Origin: an uncultured Clostridia bacterium
Lineage (GTDB): Bacteria; Bacillota; Clostridia; Christensenellales; UBA1242
Direction: 5' to 3'
Assembly (NCBI GenBank): GCA_944349805.1
Contig: CALVNP010000055.1
Span: 1,565-65,564, forward strand
Length of the DNA stretch: 64,000 nt
In this document: piece after piece, positions 15,718 to 27,950 of the stretch
Layout of the letters: each line of letters starts with the position of its first letter
How positions within the stretch are numbered: position 1 is the stretch's first letter
The notes under the pieces: generated by a model
Told to the model about the DNA's origin: nothing
Database searches by the model: none
What the model saw: the letters and a program-made list of their open reading frames with translations, nothing else
Position numbers and translations under genes: made by a program

Positions 15718-15794
15718 GTGGGTATAGCTCAGCTGGATAGAGCGTCCGCCTCCTAAGCGGAAGGTCTGCAGTTCAAATCTGCATACTCACACCA
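15718..15794 (+). tRNA. Element-borne tRNA-Arg (anticodon CCT), complete
   Basis: GTGGGTA-TA-GCTC-AGCTGGATA-GAGC-G-TCCGC-CTCCTAA-GCGGA-AGGTC-TGCAG-TTCAAAT-CTGCA-TACTCAC-A-CCA. 77 nt with a canonical cloverleaf and one G-U pair in the acceptor stem. Confidence 0.92.
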
Positions 15795-15871: not shown

Positions 15872-15900
15872 TTGACAAATGAAAAATATTAATTTATAAT
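15872..15900 (+). promoter_or_regulatory. Consensus SigA promoter upstream of the XRE/ImmA pair
   Basis: TTGACA, exactly 17 nt, then TATAAT. It lies 26 nt upstream of the XRE start codon region. Confidence 0.7.
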
Positions 15901-15925
15901 GTAGGCATGATAAAGGAGAAAAATT

Positions 15926-16288
15926 ATGAAATATACACCTTTTGGAGAATTTTATAAAATACTTCGTATAAAAAATCATGAGAACTTAAATGACGCTAGT
16001 AATCTTTTAGATGTGTCACCAGCTTTTATTTCATCTGTAGAGTGTGGTAAAAGACCTGTTCCTGATGATTGGTATAATATTTTATGTAAACACTATTCTT
16101 TATCACAAACAGAACAGTCACAATTAAAAGACGCCATAGACGCATCTCAAACTATTGTCAAGTTGGGGTTACTTAATGCATCTCTTCAGCAAAGAAAAGT
16201 TGCTGTAGCATTTCAGCGATCATTTGATAATTTAAATGAAGAGGTAGCAAATGAATTATTAAAAATCCTTAATAAGGTTAAAAAGTAG
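15926..16288 (+). CDS. XRE-family helix-turn-helix regulator (ImmR/CapH-like)
   Basis: 120 aa. The HTH is LNDASNLLDVSPAFISSVECGKRPVP. RBS AAGGAG. Its stop overlaps the start of the downstream metallopeptidase gene (TAGTG). Confidence 0.8.
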   Translation: MKYTPFGEFYKILRIKNHENLNDASNLLDVSPAFISSVECGKRPVPDDWYNILCKHYSLSQTEQSQLKDAIDASQTIVKLGLLNASLQQRKVAVAFQRSFDNLNEEVANELLKILNKVKK

Positions 16289-16812
16289 TGGATTATAAAA
16301 CATATCCAATTAAACGACAATCATTGAGAGAAATTGCGTCTATATTAAGAAAAATATTTGGCTGTAAAAATAAGTATAAATTTAATGTTGTGGATTCTTT
16401 TGAAAGAATACATTCTTTATTCTCCAATATTTATACGGAAGTAGTTGAAGATGAAGAATTAGAAAGAAATATTCCAGCAAGATGTATTCCAGATTTTGCA
16501 AATAATGAATATTTGATACAAGTTAAAAATTCAGTTTATGAGGGTGCTTGCGATGAAATTGGAGGATATCGAGCTCACATTCTACACGAAATATGTCATG
16601 CCATACTTTGTATTTTAGGTTTCGTTCCAATTATGGATAGACAGTACAAAAATAATGAAATTAAATGTTATGAAAGCATGGAATGGCAGGCAAAAGCTTT
16701 GTGTGGAGAAATTCTAATGCCATATAATGAAACTCAAAATTTAAGTACTGAAGAAATTATGAGATTTTGTAAAGTTTCTAGAGATAGTGCAGAAAAAAGA
16801 AAAACTTATTAG
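16288..16812 (+). CDS. ImmA/IrrE-family zinc metallopeptidase (ImmA/CapP-like)
   Basis: 174 aa with HEXXH motif HEICH within AHILHEICHAIL. It is translationally coupled to the upstream XRE gene, the classic repressor/anti-repressor protease arrangement. Confidence 0.75.
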   Translation: MDYKTYPIKRQSLREIASILRKIFGCKNKYKFNVVDSFERIHSLFSNIYTEVVEDEELERNIPARCIPDFANNEYLIQVKNSVYEGACDEIGGYRAHILHEICHAILCILGFVPIMDRQYKNNEIKCYESMEWQAKALCGEILMPYNETQNLSTEEIMRFCKVSRDSAEKRKTY

Positions 16813-16944
16813 TTGATTTCAGGTATTACCTGTTTTCATAAAAAAAAGAACAAGTTCGCACCTTGTTCTAAAACGGATAAGGCTCCGTAATGCCGTTTGA
16901 AATATGTTCTAATTTCGTAACAATAATATTATAACATATTTTGT

Positions 16945-16976
16945 ATCGGTATGCAAGTCCTTGCGCCGATTTTTTT
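16945..16976 (+). terminator. Rho-independent terminator after the XRE/ImmA operon
   Basis: Hairpin ATCGG..GCAAG-TC-CTTGC..CCGAT followed by T6. Confidence 0.65.
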
Positions 16977-17018
16977 AAATTTACTAAAAAAATCGAGACT
17001 ACTTCAAGGAGGTGTTAA

Positions 17019-17237
17019 ATGGGAACACTGTACACACTTATTACCGGTATGAGTATAGTAGGTATCAAGGCATTAGATATATTCCTATCTTTTATATTTG
17101 ATTGCTTGTCATTTACTATTGCTTGGAAGATTGGTGGACTAGGTACGACTTCAAAAATGCGTGGCTTTTTACACTGGTCTAGTAGAATTGGTATATATAT
17201 TTTATTAGTAATCACAACAAAAAATATAATTTTATAG
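17019..17237 (+). CDS. Small 2-3 TM membrane protein, first gene of the CBASS-like operon
   Basis: 72 aa behind the very strong RBS AAGGAGGTG with 5-nt spacing. It is hydrophobic. There is only a faint resemblance to the N-terminal part of phage_holin_4-type holins. Confidence 0.5.
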   Translation: MGTLYTLITGMSIVGIKALDIFLSFIFDCLSFTIAWKIGGLGTTSKMRGFLHWSSRIGIYILLVITTKNIIL

Positions 17238-17243
17238 GAGACA

Positions 17244-18485
17244 ATGTTTATGGATAAATTTAAAAAAGAAGAACTAATGAATAAAATTGCGCATGCACTG
17301 GATATCACTCCTCAAATTTATAACGAATCGATAAGTGCTGTTCGTGGATTAAGTGCTTATATAAAAAATCAAATTAAAAATGTTGAGATTTATAAACAGG
17401 GTTCGTTTAAATTGGGCACAATAGTTAGACCATATTACAAAGATAAAGACGGCGAATTTGATATTGACTTAGTAGTACAATTTCAAGCGAGCAAAAATAA
17501 TATAAAACCTTCAACAATAAAACAAGCATTAAGATCATGTTTATCTTCTCAAAATTACAGGAACTTATTAGAAGAAGAAAAAAGAAGATGCTGGACTTTA
17601 CACTATCCTTCTAATACGTGTTCATTCCATGTTGATTTATTGCCATGTGTTGATGAATCATCAGAAGTTAAAAGCTCTATTGCTCCTGTACAATATAGAA
17701 ATACCTCTATTGCAATAACTGAAATTGAAGATAAAAAAAACAAACCTTATAATTATAAATGGATGACCAGTAATCCTAAAGGCTATGCTGAGTGGTTTGA
17801 TGATATCAATCAACGTGTTTATGGAGAAATAAAAAAACAAGATAGGCTCAGAGTTTTGAACGAGAATATAACAATGTTTGATTCTATTGATTCTGTTTCT
17901 GATGAATATACTAGAACTCCTTTGCAACAAGTAATACAAATATTAAAAAGACATCGTGATGTTATGTATTGCAACGATAGCGACAATGCTCCAATCTCTA
18001 TTATTATAACTACATTGGTTGGTAAGATTGTTGAAGAAAATCCAAAAGTATACAATACCACATATGATTTATTAAATTCTGTTATCGAAGGCCTAAATTT
18101 TTATTCTCAACTAACAATTGGTGGTATAACAACAGATTTTAGTGAGGATTTTAAGACCAAAAAATTAATTACTAAAAATATGCAAAACGGTAAACCTTAT
18201 TGGTGTATAAAAAATCCAGCAAATTCTCAAGAAAATTTAGCAAACAAATGGAATGAAAATCCAGAAAAAGCAACTGAATTTTTTAAATGGGTTCGTCAAG
18301 TAAAAAGTGATTTGATAGATATATTAGACTTTGAGCCAGAACAAATTAAGCAAAAATTAAAGTACTGTTTAGGAGAACGAATTAGTAACCAGGTTTTATA
18401 TGATTTTAATTTCAATAACATAGATAGTTCTAAATCACGCACATTAAATTTTAGTGATAGTACTCCTAAACCATATAGATGGTAG
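17244..18485 (+). CDS. CD-NTase / SMODS-family nucleotidyltransferase (CBASS cyclase candidate)
   Basis: Pol-beta-type NTase motifs QGSFKLGT...(13)...EFDIDLVV, with the third acidic residue in FHVDLLPC. The downstream LKRHRD and SIIITTL helices are typical of cGAS/DncV-like enzymes. RBS AGGAG. The second ATG at 17250 is better spaced from it. Confidence 0.7.
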   Translation: MFMDKFKKEELMNKIAHALDITPQIYNESISAVRGLSAYIKNQIKNVEIYKQGSFKLGTIVRPYYKDKDGEFDIDLVVQFQASKNNIKPSTIKQALRSCLSSQNYRNLLEEEKRRCWTLHYPSNTCSFHVDLLPCVDESSEVKSSIAPVQYRNTSIAITEIEDKKNKPYNYKWMTSNPKGYAEWFDDINQRVYGEIKKQDRLRVLNENITMFDSIDSVSDEYTRTPLQQVIQILKRHRDVMYCNDSDNAPISIIITTLVGKIVEENPKVYNTTYDLLNSVIEGLNFYSQLTIGGITTDFSEDFKTKKLITKNMQNGKPYWCIKNPANSQENLANKWNENPEKATEFFKWVRQVKSDLIDILDFEPEQIKQKLKYCLGERISNQVLYDFNFNNIDSSKSRTLNFSDSTPKPYRW

Positions 18486-18489
18486 CCTT

Positions 18490-19170
18490 ATGGATTTTGA
18501 TTTTTTTAGAGATGGGCTCGTATTATTTGATGAATATCAATTAACAAAGTTTGACAAATTTGAAACAATCTCTGGGATATACAACTTAGATGTGATAGTT
18601 AAAGATAAAGTTTATCAAGGGAAATTTGCAGTAATTATAAATATTGAAAATACAAAAAATTTTATTCCAGAAGTTTATTTACCAAATCTTTCTTTACCTT
18701 ACAAATTCGAGCATGTATACAAAGACAAAAACAATTTATGCTGTTTAGGATTAAACTATGAAATTGAGCTAACTTGGGGAGAAAAACGTAACTTTTATAA
18801 TTTTTTAACAAAGATCTTAGATCCTTTCTTAGTAAATTATTTAGAATACTGCCAAACTAAAAATTATATAAACGGTGATAGACCTCATGCAAAAGAAGGA
18901 TTAATTGAGTACTACTCTCAATTTTTTCCTAATGAAAACCACAATAAAATAATTCCTATTTTATTATATTGTTATCATAAAATTTCAAGAAACGAATTTG
19001 CAAAAGGTAATAACTTGTGCCCTTGTGGCAGCGGTAAAAATATTAGGCATTGTATTCATCAACAGAAAATTAGAGAATTTATTAATAATGCATTAAATAA
19101 TGCTTACTTAAAAAATGCGTTTCTAAACGATATGAAAAATTATATAGGAGACAAAAATGAGCAAAGGTAA
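18490..19170 (+). CDS. E2/UBC-like protein with C-terminal SEC-C zinc motif (Cap2-short-like candidate)
   Basis: The sequence shows a UBC-like layout. The beta-meander is GKFAVIINIENTKNFIPEVYLP. The catalytic-loop-like segment is EHVYKDKNNLCCLGL (H75, C84/C85). A helix TWGEKRNFYNFLTKILDPFL follows. The C-terminal CPCGSGKNIRHC is a SEC-C motif. The start is uncertain (ATG 18490 or GTG 18454). Confidence 0.5.
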   Translation: MDFDFFRDGLVLFDEYQLTKFDKFETISGIYNLDVIVKDKVYQGKFAVIINIENTKNFIPEVYLPNLSLPYKFEHVYKDKNNLCCLGLNYEIELTWGEKRNFYNFLTKILDPFLVNYLEYCQTKNYINGDRPHAKEGLIEYYSQFFPNENHNKIIPILLYCYHKISRNEFAKGNNLCPCGSGKNIRHCIHQQKIREFINNALNNAYLKNAFLNDMKNYIGDKNEQR

Positions 19171-20296
19171 AAATATTAACAAAGAAACAAGAAACTATTC
19201 AAAAGAAACAATAGCTTTACTTTATGGAAAAACTGCAGGTCATTGTACAATTTGTAATCGACCTTTGCAGTTTGACAATTACTCCCATAGTGATGTAAAC
19301 ATTTCAGAAAAAGCACACATTAAACCTTTTAGCGAATTAGGACCTCGCTCTTCAACTGAAGTTTTAACCACAGAAGAAAAAAACGGTTATGATAATTTAA
19401 TTTTGCTCTGTGGAGCATGTCATTCTACTATCGATAAAAAAGTTTTAGAAGGTGTATATACTGTAGACTGGCTGAAAGAGGAAAAAATACGAAAAGAAAA
19501 ACAAATACGCGAAGTGATGAAGTGTTTAACTCCAAAAGAAATATATTGCTTAAAGTTATTTAGCCCGATAGCTGATTCAAATTTTGATTATGATGATAAT
19601 TTGTTAAAAAGATTGTGCTACAAAAATGGTTTTCATGTAAATGAAACTTTAATTGATTTAGGAGATAATCTTAATATTGAAAATAAAAAAATAAATTTAA
19701 CTGTATTCAATCAACAAATAAAATCTAAAGTGAAATTATTAAATAATAATGGAGAAAATAATGAACTTTGTATATTTGCACTTGGACCACAATATTTGTT
19801 AATAAAATTAGGTTATGAATTATCCGATAAAATAGATGCACATATTTTTACAAAACATAGAAATGGATGGATTTATGATAATATCAATGAAAAGAAAAAT
19901 TACTTTTCTATAATTCGTCCTGTGAAAATTGAAAAAAATAACCAAGTGTCTATAATTGTTTCATCTAGCGCAGAAGTAAATCACGATAGAGTATATCATT
20001 GTTTAGGTAAAAATATAGATATCTGGGAATTAAAGGCAAATAATATAGGTATTGATAATATAAATTCAATAGAAGAAATAGTACAGTTTTCAATTCAATG
20101 TGTTACTATTATTGATAATATTGGCACTATATATGGTAAGGATAAAATAATTAATTTATTTCCTGCTATGTGTAATTCTTTGGCTGTTAAATTTGGACAA
20201 TCAATATTTCATAAAAGCCATAATAAAATTTTGATATATGATACTATTAAAGATAAAACAGGGGAAATAATAGAAAAACCCATTTTAAAAATTTAA
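19157..20296 (+). CDS. HNH endonuclease fused to a SAVED sensor domain (Cap5-like CBASS effector)
   Basis: The N-terminal HNH is CTICNRPL...EKAHIKPFS...NLILLCGACHSTID. The C-terminal ~230 aa contains two CARF-like repeats (ELCIFALGPQYLLIKLGYELSD and IINLFPAMCNSLAVKFGQSI) as in SAVED. RBS AGGAG. It overlaps the previous gene by 14 nt. Confidence 0.7.
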   Translation: MSKGKNINKETRNYSKETIALLYGKTAGHCTICNRPLQFDNYSHSDVNISEKAHIKPFSELGPRSSTEVLTTEEKNGYDNLILLCGACHSTIDKKVLEGVYTVDWLKEEKIRKEKQIREVMKCLTPKEIYCLKLFSPIADSNFDYDDNLLKRLCYKNGFHVNETLIDLGDNLNIENKKINLTVFNQQIKSKVKLLNNNGENNELCIFALGPQYLLIKLGYELSDKIDAHIFTKHRNGWIYDNINEKKNYFSIIRPVKIEKNNQVSIIVSSSAEVNHDRVYHCLGKNIDIWELKANNIGIDNINSIEEIVQFSIQCVTIIDNIGTIYGKDKIINLFPAMCNSLAVKFGQSIFHKSHNKILIYDTIKDKTGEIIEKPILKI

Positions 20297-22072: not shown

Positions 22073-22106
22073 AGCGCGGCATTTGCCCTAAACAGCGCGG
22101 CATTTG
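22073..22106. promoter_or_regulatory. Direct repeat AGCGCGGCATTTG x2, spaced 21 bp start to start (candidate operator of the xis-int promoter)
   Basis: Two perfect 13-bp GC-rich copies (22073-22085 and 22094-22106) sit in an AT-rich region about 115-150 bp upstream of the xis-like start. Confidence 0.5.
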
Positions 22107-22171
22107 TGCAGAAACACTTTTCTTGAATAAATTATCGTCTTTGATAAAACATCGCCACAGAGCGCAAATAT

Positions 22172-22235
22172 TTGATTTCTTTTGAATTTTGATTTTATTT
22201 GATTATTTTTTGATTTATTTTTGATTTTTTATCAA
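22172..22235. repeat. Helically phased TTGATTT repeats, 6 direct copies plus an inverted copy
   Basis: TTGAT/TTGAA motifs start at 22172, 22182, 22189, 22199, 22210 and 22221 (spacings 10, 7, 10, 11, 11). An inverted ATCAA lies at 22231. The block sits between the rep-like and xis-like genes. Confidence 0.6.
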
Positions 22236-22311
22236 CGAAAATCCATATATTAAAACATCAAAAACTTAAGAATTGCCTTATATTTAGGGCAATTTGCCAA
22301 GCTAACAACTA

Positions 22312-23088
22312 TTATTTTTTTGATTTTTGATTTCGCGAACTTTTGTGTGAAAGCCCGCGTCCGCTCACAAGCCTAATCCCGTAGAGATTTAGAGCCCCTC
22401 CCTCAGAAAGTGGTGGAAGTTCACTTATCATTTCAGTTAACACTTCCTTCACAACATTTTCAAAAGGATTATTTGGTCTGCGCTGTAATTCATCTGCTGA
22501 TGGTACAGTAAGAAGAATTAACTTGTCCGATACACTATCAGTTTTTGAATCTTTAAAATGCATATCAAAAGCATATTCACTTATTAGCGGTTTAATCTTT
22601 TGCTTTAATTTTAAAACAAACAAGTTCCCATCCAGATCCTTCACGCGCGCGTTTCTAGAAATAATTTTAATTTTATTTTTATAATATCTCACTATTACAG
22701 GTACTGCTTGTCCGGCTGGTAGGCAAAGAATGTCTTGTCTATCATCAGGTGTCAGCATTGGGCTACCGTCCAAACCCCAAAAAAGAATCTCAGAATTTAT
22801 GTAAATGTAAAGGCGGTTGTTGTTTTCTAAATGCCTTTTTATTATTCCTTTTTCTTCTAAGCCAACAAGAATTCTGCGAGTTTGGCGCTCCTTTCTTCTT
22901 AGGATAGGTAGGTCATCAAGCATCTTTTTGTATGTAATCCAACAATACTTCCTCCTGTTAATGAATTTTGTAACAGCGTTGCCGCTATCAAAGAACTTGA
23001 TTAAATAATCAAGTAGCAATGCATCTTGCATTGTAAGTCCAAGTCCGACCATAGTTTTTTGATCAAAGTCGAAAATGTATTCTCTCAT
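22312..23088 (-). CDS. Winged-helix replication-initiator / replisome-organizer-like protein
   Basis: 258 aa. The N-terminal ~100 aa (LTMQDALLLDYLIKF...WITYKKMLDDLPIL..KERQTRRILVGLEEKGIIKR) looks like a DnaD/replisome-organizer-type wHTH. It has a basic C-terminal tail and is flanked on both sides by repeat fields. RBS AGGAGG. Confidence 0.45.
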   Translation of the reverse strand: MREYIFDFDQKTMVGLGLTMQDALLLDYLIKFFDSGNAVTKFINRRKYCWITYKKMLDDLPILRRKERQTRRILVGLEEKGIIKRHLENNNRLYIYINSEILFWGLDGSPMLTPDDRQDILCLPAGQAVPVIVRYYKNKIKIISRNARVKDLDGNLFVLKLKQKIKPLISEYAFDMHFKDSKTDSVSDKLILLTVPSADELQRRPNNPFENVVKEVLTEMISELPPLSEGGALNLYGIRLVSGRGLSHKSSRNQKSKK

Positions 23089-23510
23089 AATATCCTCCTA
23101 ATTAAATTTTTTTGCCACGCAATAGGTTGATCAGGTCTATCACGAAGCATATATTTTAACGAGCTCTCGAGCACTCGATAAAACCAAATTGAAATGTGCC
23201 TACATATATAAGGACTAAGAAAGGCAAAAGTCCCCTAGCAATGTGCCAAAAATTTTCATCCTCCTATATATAAGGACAGAAAAAGTTAAATCACCACTAG
23301 TAAAGCGCCAAGTTTTTTATAAAACAAAAAAAGACCGCTAAACTAATAGCAGTCTCTTTTGACCTTCCTCTTATATTATACGGCTCGGCACAGACATAGC
23401 GTAATCCGGTCGTTCACTTTTCATAATCTTTTCGTGACTTTTTTTGAATTATCGCAAAATAACACACCTACAAAAGAACAAAATTTAATCCTGTTTAATA
23501 AATAATTTGC

Positions 23511-23940
23511 TGTCACAAGTGTCATATCCGTCACTAAAAAATAAACTTACATAATAAAAAACGTTGTCATCCTTGTCACATCCGTCACAAGAAAAATGAC
23601 AGAAATGACAAATGACATTAAAATTCGTTTATATAGGAATTAGTGACACTTATGACAACGATGACAAGGATTTTAATATAAAACAGTGACACTTGTGACG
23701 CTTGTGACAGGTAATTTTTATATAAAAACATTTGTCCTATTTGTCCTTTGTCCACAAAATAATGGACAGAAAGACAAAAGGCAAATAGATTCGTTTAAAA
23801 GGACATATTGGACAAACAGGACAAATAGACAAATAAATTTTTTATTTTTTACCGAATCTCACGCGTACGCGCACGTAAAATAATTAGTGTTTTAGTGTCT
23901 TTAGTGTCAGAAATTACACTAATTACACTATTACACTAAA
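23511..23940. repeat. Non-coding iteron field: three short-repeat families in direct and inverted trimer arrays plus one GC-rich direct trimer, mostly at 9-bp periodicity
   Basis: GTCAC/GTCAT trimers lie at 23512-23534 and 23566-23588. Inverted TGAC(A) trimers lie at 23597-23617, 23644-23666 and 23686-23708. TTGTCC x3 lies at 23732-23753. Inverted GGACA arrays lie at 23764-23786 and 23801-23832. ACGCG x3 lies at 23859-23876. TAGTGT x3 lies at 23885-23907. Inverted TACACTA x3 lies at 23915-23938. Confidence 0.9.
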
Positions 23941-24001
23941 TTTGTTTGATCTATATATTAGTAGTAACCCCAAATTTTCCGATAAAAAAAGAACGGGCAG
24001 G

Positions 24002-24382
24002 TTAGTCCGTTCTCTTTTTATTCAATATCATTAATACTATTACACTTATTATTCCTATCAGAAGAATTGACGGAACTACAATTTTAATCCACAATGGCCA
24101 AGAAATAAGCCATCGTTGAAACTCTATAATACCTTGATATATGAATATTCCAATGATAATAAGAATTACAAAAACAGCAATAAAAGCATCTTTTCCATCT
24201 TTTTTATTTGTTATCAAATGAAGTGAGTATAACACACCTACAATCGCATATGCAATCATGCCTATTATTGCAAATACAGTATTCCAAAAATAATTATCTA
24301 AAAAGCCAATGCCGGTTATACTTAAAGAGGAAATCAAAGCAACCAATAAAATTTTATAATAACTAAGAGAATTGTTCTTCAT
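24002..24382 (-). CDS. Four-TM membrane protein, last gene of the R-M operon
   Basis: 126 aa with four hydrophobic helices. The start lies 8 nt after the ASCH gene stop. No recognisable family. Confidence 0.55.
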   Translation of the reverse strand: MKNNSLSYYKILLVALISSLSITGIGFLDNYFWNTVFAIIGMIAYAIVGVLYSLHLITNKKDGKDAFIAVFVILIIIGIFIYQGIIEFQRWLISWPLWIKIVVPSILLIGIISVIVLMILNKKRTD

Positions 24383-24389
24383 ATTTTAC

Positions 24390-24734
24390 CTACACATTAA
24401 CCCAAATTATCGCACCCTTAGGGTGTTTATATTTTATTGGCTTTTCAAATCTTTGAGCGTTAGCTAAGACCCATGCGTATGTATTTTTATAGGGCAATTT
24501 ATTTACATCTTGTATACAATGTTTCATTGATTCTTTTTGAAACATATCCATAGACAAATGGATGGAATCAATTAATTCACAACTACCTACAATTAAACCT
24601 GAGCCGCTTTGAATCAAAAAAATTTTACCTCTAATTTTTGTGTTAGAACCTCTAATTTCCCAAGTTTTCTTTCTGTTAAGGATATAATCAACCCACGGTT
24701 GTTTTATAATTAAAGCTTTCATATAATTCGCCAA
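24390..24734 (-). CDS. ASCH-domain (PUA-like fold) protein
   Basis: ALIIKQPWVDYILNRKKTWEIRGSNTKIRGKIFL is the characteristic ASCH N-terminal strand pattern. The gene abuts the endonuclease stop codon. The start is TTG 24734 or ATG 24722. Confidence 0.65.
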   Translation of the reverse strand: MANYMKALIIKQPWVDYILNRKKTWEIRGSNTKIRGKIFLIQSGSGLIVGSCELIDSIHLSMDMFQKESMKHCIQDVNKLPYKNTYAWVLANAQRFEKPIKYKHPKGAIIWVNV

Positions 24735-25502
24735 CTATTTGTAGATTTTAATAGTTCCATATGTAAGAAGTTTTTGTAAAATAATTCTAAATCCCGTTCC
24801 ATGATCATGCGTTTTACCTTTGTTTTTACCAGAAGCATAGACACCAATTCTAATATCAATAAATAAATCTCCATTTTCTATGGCTGATAACATTTTTTCA
24901 ATTGTTAACCCTTCTAAAATGACCATCTGTTCATATCGAACGAAATGGTAACCACCTTCATCTTTTTCTTCGCCATATAGGATTGCAATTTTATTCAATT
25001 TTTTTGATAATGCATTTTCTAGAACAGAAAAGTCCCAATACACATTTTTCCCTATACTTTCACTTTCTAAAATAACATCGTCAACTGTTCTTTTTACGAC
25101 TAATCTAAGTTTTTTGGAAGCCCGATCTACATTTACTTTAAAGCAGTGGCCACCTCTATGAGAATTAAATTTATTGCCACTAACAGTTGTATTAAGAACC
25201 TTTTTCCCTGAATCTGGTTCTATCACACCATAACTTTCTCTAAGATATGTATTTACCCCTTTGGGGGATGATGGTGATTTAGAAAAAAGCGACATGAGAC
25301 TAGACGTAATTATTCTGTGTGATTTTAATTCAATTCCTTTAAAATCTGCCTCTGGTTTGTTGTCTTCTTTTTTACCAATTAAGTCTTCAAAGGCATTCCC
25401 TAAACACTGGTCTCCATGCCTTTTTGTTTCTATCCATCCCAACTTCTTTATTGAATAGAAAAGGTCAACCAATTCTTGCTCTGCTTGTAAATAATTATCC
25501 AT
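24735..25502 (-). CDS. Type II restriction endonuclease, MvaI/BcnI family
   Basis: GNAFEDLIGKKEDNKPEADFKGIELKS and the C-terminal ...KTHDHGTGFRI....L parallel BcnI (GQILERQFGVQENN...DLGEFELKG and ...GPHDRGPHLRI). ATG 25502 sits behind RBS GAGG. Confidence 0.7.
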   Translation of the reverse strand: MDNYLQAEQELVDLFYSIKKLGWIETKRHGDQCLGNAFEDLIGKKEDNKPEADFKGIELKSHRIITSSLMSLFSKSPSSPKGVNTYLRESYGVIEPDSGKKVLNTTVSGNKFNSHRGGHCFKVNVDRASKKLRLVVKRTVDDVILESESIGKNVYWDFSVLENALSKKLNKIAILYGEEKDEGGYHFVRYEQMVILEGLTIEKMLSAIENGDLFIDIRIGVYASGKNKGKTHDHGTGFRIILQKLLTYGTIKIYK

Positions 25503-25584
25503 ATATACCTCACTATGACCAATTATAGCAAAAAAAATGATGCAACACAAATCTTGCATCATTTTTATTATACTTTTTTAAAAA

Positions 25585-26835
25585 TTATTTAATCCTTTTC
25601 ATTACAACAATATATTCTTTAGTCATTGTTGAAATTTGGCCTCCAACTCTATTAGATGGGGATGCTTTTGAAGGCATACGCTTATTCAAGATATCTCTTA
25701 CATGAGTAACAATATGTTCATATCCTAATTTTTCAAACATTTTATAAGTAATAACATCTAATGGCAATTCAATATTTCTAACTCTACGATTACCAACAAC
25801 ATACACAACATATCCTCCAATTTTAACTGTCTGAGATATCGCCTCAATCGTTTCAAGATAGTCTTTATAAAAAGATATGACAGATCTATATCGGTCTCCA
25901 TTATTATTTAAATCGTATTTCTTTATTTTATCTATAGCATCATCTAATTCTTCTATATTAAAATGATATGCATTTATTTTTCGACCACCCATTAGTTTTG
26001 AATCAACTTGACCAGCATCTGTAAAACCAAGCCATTCATTTGAGAGTCTCGAAAATTGGCCATAGGCTACTGTCGTGTGGCTATCTCCATATGGAGGAGA
26101 TGTTATAATTAAATCAAATTTGTCTTGTAAATGATATTTTTGTATACACATGTTTGAGTTGTCATAAAATAATTTAACATTAGTATTATATTTAACATCC
26201 GCATTTTCTAAAATTTCTATATTTCTATCAACAATTTGTTCAAATAACTTAAATGCGTCAGGATTAAAATTTTCTAGCGATTTTTTTGACATTCTATATA
26301 ATTTAAATTCGCCATTTCTTGTTTCAGAAACACATCTAACCACTTCAGAAAAACACATTTTAAAAAACTTCAACGAAGAATCATCAAAAGATTCAAAAAC
26401 AAATTTTTTAATTTTTGCTAATTCAATAATACTTTGTTCTTTAAACCAAGAATGAAGAATTGAAAAACTAGGTATTTCACTAGGTTCTATATTTAGTATT
26501 TTGTAATTTTCAAACTTTTTAAATCTTTCTTTAATATTTTCTATTACTATAGGTTTTGTTTTTACTTCTGTAATTAACAAAGCCAAAGGATTTAGATCAA
26601 AACCATATGCTTCTTTAGCTCCATATAATTGAGCTTCCGCAATAGTTGTGCCAGATCCAACATAAGGATCTAGAAAAATTGTATCTGGACCTTTCCCATA
26701 TTCTTTTAACATTTCTCTTGCAATTAAAGGCATCATCATTGCTGGATAAGGATGAAGTCCATGCACATATTCTTTCATGCTGTGTTCTTTAAAGTTCCAT
26801 TTTTCATCATATTGTCTCTTATAATTGTTTTTCAT
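25585..26835 (-). CDS. DNA methyltransferase (amino-MTase with SPPY motif; N4-cytosine or N6-adenine)
   Basis: SAM motif I is LDPYVGSGTT near residue 56. Catalytic motif IV is ITSPPYGD near residue 245. The order I...TRD...IV indicates the alpha class. Confidence 0.85.
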   Translation of the reverse strand: MKNNYKRQYDEKWNFKEHSMKEYVHGLHPYPAMMMPLIAREMLKEYGKGPDTIFLDPYVGSGTTIAEAQLYGAKEAYGFDLNPLALLITEVKTKPIVIENIKERFKKFENYKILNIEPSEIPSFSILHSWFKEQSIIELAKIKKFVFESFDDSSLKFFKMCFSEVVRCVSETRNGEFKLYRMSKKSLENFNPDAFKLFEQIVDRNIEILENADVKYNTNVKLFYDNSNMCIQKYHLQDKFDLIITSPPYGDSHTTVAYGQFSRLSNEWLGFTDAGQVDSKLMGGRKINAYHFNIEELDDAIDKIKKYDLNNNGDRYRSVISFYKDYLETIEAISQTVKIGGYVVYVVGNRRVRNIELPLDVITYKMFEKLGYEHIVTHVRDILNKRMPSKASPSNRVGGQISTMTKEYIVVMKRIK

Positions 26836-27028
26836 TTTTACCTCTTATTATTCCTGATTCCACAAATAATTTATATAATTTTTTTCTGTATTTCGTTGAA
26901 GGATTAAATTTTCCTTTTTCCCATCGATTTACGGTTGTTTTAGAGACGTTTAAAATTTGAGCCAAATCATTTTGTGTTAGGAAATTATTTTCACGATATA
27001 CAAATATATTCTTTTGAAAATCAATCAT
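26819..27028 (-). CDS. Controller (C) protein-like XRE HTH regulator of the R-M operon
   Basis: 69 aa starting at ATG 27028 (MIDFQKNIF...LTQNDLAQILNVSKTTVNRWEKGK). It overlaps the MTase start by 17 nt. Confidence 0.7.
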   Translation of the reverse strand: MIDFQKNIFVYRENNFLTQNDLAQILNVSKTTVNRWEKGKFNPSTKYRKKLYKLFVESGIIRGKNEKQL

Positions 27029-27053
27029 TATATTTACCTCAATATATGACATT

Positions 27054-27083
27054 ATTATAACATAAAGTTGACATAAAATCAAC
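27054..27083 (-). promoter_or_regulatory. Promoter with overlapping inverted repeat (C-box-like operator) for the C-M-R operon
   Basis: The minus strand reads TTGATT, 17 nt, TATAAT. The inverted repeat GTTGA-N7-TCAAC (27067-27083) overlaps the -35 element. Confidence 0.5.
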
Positions 27084-27165
27084 ATTTTAAATTTATTTTT
27101 TTTAGAACTACTTGGCTTTTTAATAAAAACGTTTTATAGTGTCACACAACGCAAGGAGGTGTAGT

Positions 27166-27567
27166 GTGAAAGCACGATTTATTTATAAAAAGCCAGATGC
27201 ACGACTTGTGCGCAATGCAATTGATCGTGGAGAAGGTCAAAGAGCCGAGTATGTTGTAGAAAGAACAATTTACCTTCCAAAAGAAAAGTTTATTCATTTT
27301 AGAAGTCACTTGCTGGAAGATAATGATGCGATAATGACCTACAAAAATGAAATGTATGTTGACGAAAACAAAGTGTGGCACGTCTTGATGTTTTGCTCAA
27401 TGATTGCCGATATTATGATTCTTGTTAACAGTGAAGGATTTAATTATGCGCGCTACTGCTCAATAATTTGCAATGGAGGTGAACAAGTTGAAAAACGTTA
27501 TTCGACTCGTCAGAGATATCCTACAAGACCAAAAAATAACTGCAGAAGAACAACTGCAGTTAAATAA
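27166..27567 (+). CDS. Hypothetical protein; the 3' part may be out of frame
   Basis: The GTG start lies 6 nt after the strong RBS AAGGAGG. The last ~30 codons overlap the next ORF in another frame. Confidence 0.45.
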   Translation: MKARFIYKKPDARLVRNAIDRGEGQRAEYVVERTIYLPKEKFIHFRSHLLEDNDAIMTYKNEMYVDENKVWHVLMFCSMIADIMILVNSEGFNYARYCSIICNGGEQVEKRYSTRQRYPTRPKNNCRRTTAVK

Positions 27568-27730
27568 AATTTGTGAACTAGAAGAAAAATTCGTTAAAGA
27601 TTTTTCTAAAGACAAATGGAGAGAATATTTTGATTTAGATGTTGAAAAAGGTCAACTTGTAAACTTACAAATTGACCAAGTGATTAAAATTACATATGAA
27701 GTTTATAAACGACTTTTTATTGGAAAGTAG
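27473..27730 (+). CDS. Hypothetical helical protein (possibly the displaced C-terminal part of the preceding gene)
   Basis: 85 aa with no RBS. It overlaps the upstream ORF by 95 nt in the +1 frame. Confidence 0.4.
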   Translation: MEVNKLKNVIRLVRDILQDQKITAEEQLQLNKICELEEKFVKDFSKDKWREYFDLDVEKGQLVNLQIDQVIKITYEVYKRLFIGK

Positions 27731-27786: not shown

Positions 27787-27906
27787 TTTAGGTATGCGCA
27801 AGAAAAGATATAAAAATTGATATAGTTTTTGCTTGATTTGAAAGATATTTTGAGCGATATTGCGCAAATAGATATATAAAATGAGAAAAAAGTAAGATTT
27901 TGAGCG

Positions 27907-27950
27907 CTCCTAAGGGCTAGTTAGGGGTTCGATTCCCTTAGGGGACGCCA
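27907..27950 (+). other. attR: 8-bp core CTCCTAAG plus the 3' half of the host tRNA-Arg(CCT) gene
   Basis: CTCCTAAG-GGCT-AGTT-AGGGG-TTCGATT-CCCTT-AGGGGAC-G-CCA. The 3' acceptor strand pairs with GTCCTCT at 15534-15540. Confidence 0.85.

Follow-up and report, generated by a model that had tools for sequence, protein, structure and literature searches.

The window analysed here is a 64,000-nucleotide (64-kb) stretch of contig CALVNP010000055.1 from an uncultured Clostridia bacterium, and at 23511–23940 it carries a field of short repeats within an integrated island. We favour, at a probability of roughly 0.6, the reading that this field is a tandem array of phage-type replication origins, of the kind used by helper phages, in what would be a minimal cos-type satellite and defence island. 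The field comprises three modules, and by sequence each appears to have its relative in the origin-like gap of a separate branch within one phage family. A preliminary description of the stretch had raised, among other options, a multi-specificity origin usable by different initiators or helpers; this is the option we favour, as each module has a counterpart directly 3′ of a phage primase-helicase gene. By analogy, the island is probably copied by several different infecting phages.

The field comprises three modules of two architectures

The field consists of about 31 short units with a period of mainly 9 bp. Identical 5-mers recurred 38 times at a lag of 9 bp, compared with a mean of 0.87 (standard deviation 1.27, maximum 7) in 500 dinucleotide-preserving shuffles; counts at lags of 7 and 8 bp were 11 and 13, and those at the remaining lags 0–2. 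Scored by lag self-match, the field was the top 430-bp stretch across the window, and Tandem Repeats Finder and a repeat finder agreed on it, including nested imperfect palindromes of 42 and 35 nt. The pattern TGTCA-N4-TGTCA-N4-TGTCA, with up to two mismatches, occurred four times in the field and once elsewhere in the 64-kb window (a two-mismatch chance match), where 0.31 occurrences were expected.

Every repeat coordinate in the preliminary description was verified, as was its count of 15 units for the GTCAC/GTCAT family (the TGTCA family below). These form five trimers over both orientations and share the core (T/C)GTCA, followed by Y and W. The 9-bp period given there holds for most steps, but some are 7 or 8 bp; pooling the island loci with one phage module gave 49 TGTCA steps of 9 bp, with 12 of 7 bp and a single one of 10 bp. 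The units of the field are:

23512, 23521, 23530, 23566, 23575 and 23584, plus strand: GTCAC/GTCAT units, in two trimers (23512–23534 and 23566–23588)
23596, 23605, 23612, 23643, 23652, 23661, 23686, 23695 and 23704, minus strand: GTGAC/ATGAC units, in trimers at 23596–23617, 23643–23667 and 23686–23709
23733, 23742 and 23749: TGTCC units, facing GGACA/AGACA at 23764, 23772, 23801, 23810, 23819 and 23827
23860–23876: alternating purine–pyrimidine GC tract, CACGCGTACGCGCACGT
23885, 23893 and 23902: TAGTGT units, facing ACACTA at 23916, 23925 and 23933

The field lies within a 913-bp non-coding stretch (23089–24001), and a 65-amino-acid (aa) open reading frame (ORF) at 23686–23883 falls entirely within the arrays.

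Where the preliminary description saw three families obeying one grammar, we recognized three modules of two architectures. The TGTCA and TGTCC units share one of these (type A), and the TAGTGT units and the GC tract make up the other (type B). Read on the strand of the downstream Rep-like gene, type A runs from 3–5 direct units through a conserved box, three direct units and a short T run to three inverted units; the box is CCTATATAAACGAAT in TGTCA copies and TTTTAAACGAATC in the TGTCC copy, and the order of parts is identical in the two modules. Type B consists of a conserved AT-rich flank, three direct and three inverted units, an AT stretch and an alternating purine–pyrimidine GC tract, whose length and sequence vary while the alternation is constant. 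Convergent unit sets occur in every module, with the AT-rich box of type A between two same-orientation sets and the AT stretch of type B after the convergent sets. The modules and outer arrays are:

23511–23535, plus strand: outer TGTCA array, units TGTCACAAG, TGTCATATC and CGTCAC
23565–23670, minus strand: core type-A TGTCA module, with direct units at 23643–23667, box CCTATATAAACGAAT at 23623–23637, direct units at 23596–23617 and inverted units at 23565–23589
23686–23709, minus strand: second outer TGTCA array, partner of 23511–23535, reading GTGACACTT, GTGACGCTT and GTGACA on the plus strand
23731–23836, minus strand: type-A TGTCC module, with four direct units at 23801–23831, box TTTTAAACGAATC at 23788–23800, three degenerate direct units at 23764–23786 and inverted TGTCC units at 23733, 23742 and 23749
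23857–23985, minus strand: type-B TAGTGT module, with an AT-rich flank at 23941–23985, units at 23885–23938, an AT stretch and the tract CACGCGTACGCGCACGT at 23860–23876

The region of the first outer array (23511–23535) pairs with 23685–23726 as a 42-nt imperfect inverted repeat. Likeness of the field to DnaA or Spo0A boxes was considered and dropped: a single unit, TTGTCCACA, comes within one mismatch of a DnaA box.

Counterparts of the modules follow phage primase-helicase genes

A scan of viral contigs with the type-A box CCTATATAAACGAAT gave 42 matches, one of them relevant (L282/L292; loci are given L numbers throughout). On this 65-kb viral contig, the 134 bp that separate the stop codon of a primase-helicase gene from a VRR-NUC gene are taken up by a complete type-A TGTCA module. 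Window positions 23565–23670 are colinear with it, their identity being 88.9% over 99 nt in BLAST and 94% over 94 nt in a local alignment. The primase-helicase, of 683 aa, has a DnaG-type zinc ribbon, a Toprim and an AAA_25 domain and is a PHROG ‘DNA primase/helicase’; the module and its flanking genes are part of a block that contains HNH, SNF2 helicase and nuclease genes.

Relatives of this helicase number at least 803; nine of them, at 43–76% identity, were inspected, making ten phage or prophage loci together with L292. A short-iteron module stood right after the helicase gene in all nine. Of the ten loci, eight had a gap of 128–171 bp; in L358 it measured about 510 bp, and in L361 the next called gene was 43 bp away. 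The gene order of the family is HNH, SNF2 helicase, DUF7307, primase-helicase, gap and VRR-NUC, with a sigma-like regulator, HNH and small terminase genes later on; this synteny was common to eight of the nine relatives, the neighbours in L358 being arranged differently. The gaps contain:

L292, L353, L354 and L357: type-A module, TGTCA
L355 and L359: type-B module, TGTCA with a purine–pyrimidine tract
L356 and L360: type-B module, TAGTGTCA with a purine–pyrimidine tract
L358: iteron GTGYCC
L361: iteron AAGTGTGCA

The type-B modules of the islands are colinear, flank included, with the gaps that follow the primase-helicase gene in L356 and L360; for the window copy this colinearity also holds in L359 and L355. 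The copy in the window is 84% identical to L360 over 74 nt and 77% identical to L356 over 83 nt, and the TGTCC module of the window is 81% identical to phage L353 over 72 nt. Scans of viral contigs for TAGTGT arrays returned chance or coding matches and then none; the phage counterpart of this module emerged solely through the helicase homologues. The C-terminal ~140 residues of the helicase, which in the alignment look like a winged helix-turn-helix (HTH) domain, are its least conserved part in most relatives.

The arrangement recurs beyond this phage family. TGTCC/GGACA arrays at 9 bp were found directly 3′ of VapE or AAA_25 primase-helicase genes, with Pfam confirmation in 7 of the 9 loci that had a scanned abutting ORF, and unrelated viral contigs carry facing direct and inverted TGTCA/TGTCC sets with 9-bp spacing right at the 3′ end of primase-helicase genes:

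L050, L073, L339 and L322: Prim-Pol/VapE gene with 3′ arrays
L055: archaeo-eukaryotic primase and DUF3987 gene with 3′ arrays
L329, L344, L318, L313, L327 and L310 (the last a contig of 67% GC): AAA_25 gene with various primase domains and 3′ arrays

An alternating purine–pyrimidine GC tract of 11–23 nt stands beside convergent iterons in AT-rich DNA in the window, in island loci L004, L006, L011 and L311, in phages L355, L356, L359 and L360 and in metagenome locus L304; the tract of L006 is 6 nt longer than that of the window. Such alternating tracts are prone to Z-DNA formation.

Five metagenome loci of 51% GC (L302, L305, L307, L308 and L309) have 5–7 TACCCATNN units at a 9-bp period, containing TACCCAT arrays, that adjoin four TGTCAC and four GTGACA units; no link to a helicase gene was found. 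The TACCCAT/TGTCAC block occurs twice, inverted, in L302 and L308, and L307 has a nearby MutS-sized ORF of 902 aa, called by size alone. Two specificities thus stand side by side in an unrelated setting, and these loci could be transposon ends.

A late-promoter-like cassette and a cos-like segment resemble the same phages

Two further non-coding segments of the island have relatives in this phage family:

23327–23449, minus strand: phage late-promoter-like cassette, with repeated xxACGAAA sites, TATAAT at 23375–23380, a transcript of ~40 nt and a terminator at 23327–23360
22100–22403, minus strand: cos-like segment between the Rep-like and xis-like genes, in which 22311–22403 is followed by AATCAAAA repeats

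Positions 23354–23449 are 90.6% identical over 96 nt to the promoter directly before the HNH/terminase operon of L292. In L353, L355 and L361 this operon is likewise preceded by TATAATATAAGTG, with a short transcript and a terminator after it. Just upstream of the promoter, the phages encode a small sigma-region-4-like regulator. In the island, promoter and terminator are followed by the Rep-like, xis and integrase genes, and the cassette is kept across islands; it had no Rfam match. The layout of promoter and terminator in island and phages resembles the PR′–tR′ late switch of lambda, an analogy that suggests that a phage late regulator turns the island on.

The cos-like positions 22311–22403 match L292 (80% over 97 nt) and L357 (83% over 54 nt), in both cases in the segment directly upstream of the small terminase gene. 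The segment is kept in all nine island loci for which the region was available, including the distant L013 and L014 (L010 is incomplete there). Judged by sequence, a cos role for 22100–22403 is plausible because these phages pair an HNH gene with terminase. As cassette and segment match the same phages, a satellite way of life fits, and the island looks like a minimal cos-type satellite that also bears defence cargo. The Rep-like ORF is 20–30 codons longer than all of its homologues, and this tail (22312–22400) reads into the cos-like segment, so that its stop codon was probably lost or shifted.

Modules vary as cassettes within a rare family of islands

Homologues of the 258-aa Rep-like protein are rare (14 clusters at 90% identity), and 11 distinct loci were recovered from metagenomes and metagenome-assembled genomes of uncultured Clostridia. 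They share an order of variable defence cargo, hairpin, short-repeat field, promoter/terminator cassette, longer repeats, Rep-like gene, a non-coding gap of ~450 bp, xis and integrase. The Rep-like proteins of related islands are 56–97% identical, and modules of the same grammar vary there in number and kind:

Window and L006: one type B, one TGTCC type A and one TGTCA type A with two extra outer arrays
L001 and L007/L008: two TGTCA type A
L010: one TGTCA type A
L005: TGTCA arrays
L004: type B and a miniature TGTCA set
L011: type B only
L013 and L014 (32–35% protein identity): no modules

The type-B module is also found in L004, L006, L011 and the metagenome fragment L311. In L311 a repeat-to-repeat deletion removed a spacer and one neighbouring array (23686–23709 or 23643–23667), fusing two arrays. 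Given this deletion and the varying content among relatives, the modules behave as cassettes whose number and kind are independent of the island proteins.

The match between L006 and the window, at 94.7% identity, begins exactly at the hairpin (24019) and ends at the integrase stop codon (20340), with unrelated sequence on both outer sides. The border between variable cargo and conserved core is marked by the following feature:

23990–24013: terminator-like hairpin AGAACGG..CCGTTCT

A terminator scan called this hairpin on the plus strand, yet it lies at the 3′ end of the minus-strand cargo operon, its stem is palindromic and T or A runs flank it on both sides. The stem is kept in all related islands. 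The cargo at 24002–27085 differs in every relative (L001, L004, L005, L006, L007, L011 and L311), with homology breaking sharply at the hairpin. Across the window and its relatives it includes MvaI/BcnI restriction-modification with an ASCH protein, type I restriction-modification with a KAP NTPase or PIN, a type III-like restriction pair of methylase and helicase type, and methyltransferases; by eye, one cargo gene of a relative may be of MazG type.

The Rep-like protein and its likely sites

The genes around the field are all on the minus strand. Downstream of it lie:

22312–23088, minus strand: Rep-like protein, 258 aa
21741–21959, minus strand: xis-like gene, 72 aa
20335–21729, minus strand: tyrosine integrase

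Neither the Rep-like nor the xis-like protein had a Pfam or NCBIfam match. Residues 11–97 of the Rep-like protein weakly match PHROG 428, ‘replication initiation protein’ (5e-8), and its AlphaFold model (mean predicted confidence, pLDDT, 80.5) has a repeated helix/β-hairpin pattern that reads as two winged-helix-like halves. The best specific Foldseek matches were the staphylococcal RepA_N N-terminal domains 4pql, 5kbj and 4pt7 (E 0.01–0.07), and viral ‘replication initiator A’ and ‘replisome organizer’ proteins were also matched with modest scores. A profile search against Protein Data Bank (PDB) sequences found nothing, and the protein does not qualify as a RepA_N member, either by Pfam PF06970 or by similarity to RepA of pSK41 or pTZ2162. 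The label ‘Rep-like’ is reasonable at the level of the predicted fold. We found no Rep-like homologue in viral contigs and no similarity between the Rep-like protein and the phage primase-helicase.

The preliminary description placed the field upstream of the Rep-like gene. That is so, but not directly, as the promoter/terminator cassette and two 62-bp repeats intervene:

23204–23318, minus strand: direct repeat of 53 nt in two copies spaced 62 bp apart, both closing with promoter-like TCCTTATATATGTAGGCAC

Relative L005 has at least seven such TCCTTATATATGTAGGCAC-ending repeats, and a 13-codon ORF with a strong AGGAGG lies between the two copies of the window. In L358, at 1103–2418, at least three spaced promoter copies ending in CCGTATAATATAAGTGTAG, each with an upstream TTGAAAAGTTGAC, resemble the 62–75-bp repeats of the window subclade. 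A leader hairpin, CGAGTGCTCGAGAGCTCG, with TTAAAATAT after it, sits at 23154–23183, immediately before the Rep-like gene, and the hairpin stem shows compensatory changes in relatives (CGAAGG..CCTTCG, CAAAGG..CCTTTG and CGATGG..CCGTCG).

All relatives outside the window subclade have 2–6 semi-palindromic units in the 300–400 bp before the Rep-like gene, ~45–120 bp apart (mostly 55–75), in L001 (5666–5892), L004 (5427–5875), L007 (7637–7875), L010, L013 and L014. Each has a variable 11-bp stem and an invariant CAAATGG centre, usually followed by a TAAAAT-like hexamer. Across 24 units, 89.8% of positions were paired, with 70 double compensatory cells compared with 22 in shuffles (0 of 500 reached the observed value), and slid controls paired at 30–53%; the units had been pre-selected for at least 8 of 12 pairs, which somewhat inflates these pairing figures. 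They may act as protein sites in duplex DNA, or form hairpins as single-stranded DNA or RNA. The CAAATGG units are missing from the window subclade, which has the 62–75-bp promoter-like repeats instead, and neither the hairpin units nor the Rep-like gene leader was found in the phage loci. [quoted passage not shown]

The wider island

Upstream of the field, the island encodes a membrane protein, an ASCH protein, an MvaI/BcnI endonuclease, a methyltransferase and an XRE regulator. The XRE gene lies with divergent genes at the far end, and two far-end genes (27139–27730) are common to the window, L007, L008 and L011. A tRNA-Arg(CCT) gene adjoins the island in five loci (the window, L006, L001, L004 and L011), beyond the integrase; in the window, a cyclic-oligonucleotide-based anti-phage signalling system (CBASS) operon and a CapH/CapP-type regulator pair (15926–20296) lie between tRNA and integrase. 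The element is an integrated island of roughly 12 kb, its right end not being fixed, with two cargo slots. No helicase or primase gene was found among the scanned island proteins.

The segment 15718–20296 comprises the tRNA-Arg(CCT), an HTH gene and an M78 peptidase gene (CapH/CapP-like), and the CBASS genes for a CD-NTase, a 238-aa protein and an HNH-SAVED effector. The HTH gene has the promoter TTGACA-17-TATAAT-GTAGGCA (15873–15907), whose GTAGGCA start motif recurs in the island promoters, and TGTAGGCA occurs just twice in the window. No att duplication was found when the tRNA-Arg 3′ end, or the integrase flank, was compared with the right flank. At 27905–27950 lies a tRNA-like 3′ fragment (..CTCCTAAGG..GGTTCGATTCC..GACGCCA), not called as a gene, which mismatches the 3′ half of the tRNA-Arg gene at 15718 and may be an old att remnant. 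A reading of the field as integrase arm sites was dropped because the TGTCA trimers are nowhere near the island ends, the field being kilobases from either.

A BLAST search of the 913-bp intergenic region against GenBank plasmids and phages gave no match, and Rfam had nothing at the gathering threshold and only noise at E < 1.

Discussion

We propose that the short iterons of each module are of the type to which a self-loading phage primase-helicase binds through its C-terminal winged-helix domain. This enzyme would be supplied in trans by a phage of the family, on infection or induction; it would load at its cognate module and replicate the island, and the several specificities (TGTCA, TGTCC and TAGTGT) would widen the range of usable helpers. 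The cognate initiators must come from phages if this is so, because the island has no primase-helicase and its Rep-like protein is unrelated to the helicase and has no viral homologues. Position, grammar and precedent point to the phage gaps being origins bound by the helicase; replication of the island in trans would be a further step. A fuller version, tentative and in our judgement somewhat short of even odds, is that the island pirates origins from at least three lineages of one phage family, that its helper-type late promoter and cos site allow it to be switched on, replicated and packaged by several helpers, that it also diverts the phage initiator and that the modules are swappable cassettes setting the helper range.

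The nearest precedent is the Staphylococcus aureus pathogenicity island (SaPI) and the wider group of phage-inducible chromosomal islands (PICIs). Experiments have established that in SaPI origins, which directly follow rep, 6–12 penta- or hexanucleotide iterons flank an AT-rich centre with opposite orientations on its two sides, and that a self-loading helicase binds them through its C-terminal winged helix (PMC9371898). With 15 TGTCA, about 10 TGTCC and 6 TAGTGT units, the field agrees with this pattern in the number and size of its iterons; it also has opposed sets and AT-rich elements, the latter lying between same-orientation sets in type A and after the convergent sets in type B. The phage counterparts also share the position directly 3′ of a helicase gene and a helicase with a winged-helix-like C-terminal domain, so that the module grammar, and presumably the mechanism, would be like those of SaPI origins. 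The island differs in carrying iterons without a helicase gene, and therefore no origin directly downstream of a cognate helicase gene, and in having several specificities in tandem. The phage helicase is of the Toprim/AAA_25 (DnaB/RecA-like) kind, whereas SaPI Rep is placed in another helicase clade (PMC9371898), and the type-A box between same-orientation sets and the purine–pyrimidine GC tract that ends type B also differ from SaPI origins. The PICI features of integrase, xis, regulator pair, specific attachment site (here next to tRNA-Arg(CCT)) and a size of ~10–15 kb are present in the element, but in place of an own primase or Rep helicase with cognate origin there is only a RepA_N-like protein.

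Quiles-Puchalt et al. reportedly showed in 2014 that the cos-type PICIs SaPIbov5 and EfCIV583 carry a copy of the helper cos site and are packaged by the helper with an HNH nuclease and terminase. The window island shares with them a putative helper-cos copy, integrase, xis and defence or accessory cargo; they have their own primase/Rep and origin, and often capsid-size genes, whereas it has neither. In phage P4, octamer TGTTCACC iterons at ori and crr are bound by the α primase-helicase. Direct and inverted short iterons for a primase-helicase, and satellite late promoters that respond to the helper, would be common to both systems, but P4 has its own α protein and a single specificity.

The phage-inducible chromosomal island-like element (PLE) of Vibrio cholerae has a RepA_N initiator and iterons and replicates in dependence on phage ICP1 (PMC7145576). 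Like the present island as we read it, PLE is an integrated satellite with a RepA_N-type initiator, no helicase or primase and iterons in a non-coding region. It differs in that its origin is bound by its own RepA, with no helper-origin copies reported (PMC7145576), in its serine recombinase integrase and in lacking any sequence relationship; the Rep-like protein of the window also falls below the Pfam RepA_N threshold.

Several observations weigh against our proposal. Origin function of the phage gaps rests on the SaPI analogy, and the type-A AT-rich box between same-orientation sets is unlike the SaPI description. The TAGTGT(A/T) units of the window differ from phage TAGTGTCA, and exact TAGTGTW was found in no phage; no phage of this family was found with a type-A TGTCC module, and the two outer TGTCA arrays have no phage counterpart. 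Among the relatives, L011, which keeps type B, and L013 and L014, with neither type, are without type-A modules. The islands have their own RepA_N-like protein with, in relatives, cognate-looking repeats, so a phage initiator may not be needed. Comparing differences in cores with those in spacers (3 of 163 versus 7 of 266 for L006; 1 of 148 versus 13 of 236 for L311) gives little power, the differences being too few to decide.

A decoy array, one of the options in the preliminary description, has experimental precedent in phage-encoded resistance (PER), in which a phage origin is supplied in trans, for example as a 302-bp element of Streptococcus thermophilus phage Sfi21 (PMC6356513). Here the array would titrate the phage initiator and divert phage replication with no role in island propagation, as a defence acting at the level of DNA. 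PER elements are likewise non-coding phage origins apart from the initiator gene, activated by the infecting phage and binding its replication proteins, and in trans they block the accumulation of phage DNA in a copy-number-dependent way (PMC6356513). The defence cargo of the window (MvaI/BcnI restriction-modification, and CBASS with a CapH/CapP-type pair) and of its relatives (type I and type III restriction-modification, KAP NTPase and PIN genes) would suit such a role, and several modules per island would raise titration capacity. PER is, however, an effect of phage or cryptic-prophage elements at raised copy number (PMC6356513), and a single chromosomal copy would be weak unless amplified, amplification being what the origin-array proposal supplies. 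The island modules also differ in being a conserved chromosomal part with multiplied specificities beside cos-like and late-promoter-like segments, which suggest exploitation of the phage over pure interference. We rank a decoy-only array below the origin array and consider it unlikely, although the decoy and hijacking roles are compatible and may well coexist, the island then being a natural multi-specific form of PER.

A conventional Rep-plus-iteron origin, bound by the adjacent Rep-like protein as the preliminary description implied, is distinctly improbable. The field is 420 bp upstream of the Rep-like gene, and the predicted fold of the protein resembles RepA_N N-terminal domains, in line with its PHROG replication-initiation match. 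Modules nevertheless occur in phages without a Rep-like homologue, L013 and L014 have the protein without arrays, L011 has TAGTGT units only, and one protein is unlikely to read three cores. The units are of 5–6 bp at a 9-bp period, not of 17–22 bp as in iterons of Rep_3/RepA_N plasmids, and the CAAATGG semi-palindromic repeats beside the gene in relatives are a better fit to RepA_N (PMC7145576). It is very doubtful, too, that the modules are vestiges of degraded prophages, or homology handles for co-integration with phage concatemers leading to transduction. Any cloned SPP1-homologous segment (360–1340 bp) raised plasmid transduction more than 1000-fold, independently of its function (PMC5615212), and the modules are 77–94% identical to phage DNA, but 80–90% homology over ~100 bp is a poor recombination substrate. 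Vestiges would not be expected to multiply with different specificities or to keep the same position and intact cores in islands whose proteins are 56–69% identical.

We give least credence of all to a partition centromere or an operator array bound by a ribbon-helix-helix, ParR or XRE protein, whether alone or in the combination of origin, centromere and operator suggested earlier. Contiguous short direct and inverted repeats are typical of ribbon-helix-helix sites, as in the ω heptads of pSM19035 and the 8-bp repeats of pAD1, and TGACA resembles a −35 hexamer. Yet no ParA, ParM, TubZ, ribbon-helix-helix or other partition gene was found in the scanned island proteins or beside the phage copies, and the position 3′ of a primase-helicase recurs across unrelated helicase families.

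A limited literature search found no described satellite that has helper origins but lacks the initiator, or that lines up origins of several specificities; those with which the island was compared (SaPI/PICI, PLE, phage-inducible chromosomal minimalist islands (PICMI) and P4) carry their own initiator and origin. If our proposal is true, an island with only the origins of its helpers would represent a different and cheaper route to helper-dependent replication, and its module types would be a direct sequence read-out of the phages that it exploits or resists. The finding ties natural defence islands to the PER effect and defines a compact origin grammar for the large Toprim/AAA_25 primase-helicase family of gut Clostridia phages. 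It also points to a family of integrated cos-type elements, ~12 kb long and with exchangeable defence cargo, that satellite searches relying on markers may overlook, since these elements lack the usual primase/Rep and capsid genes.

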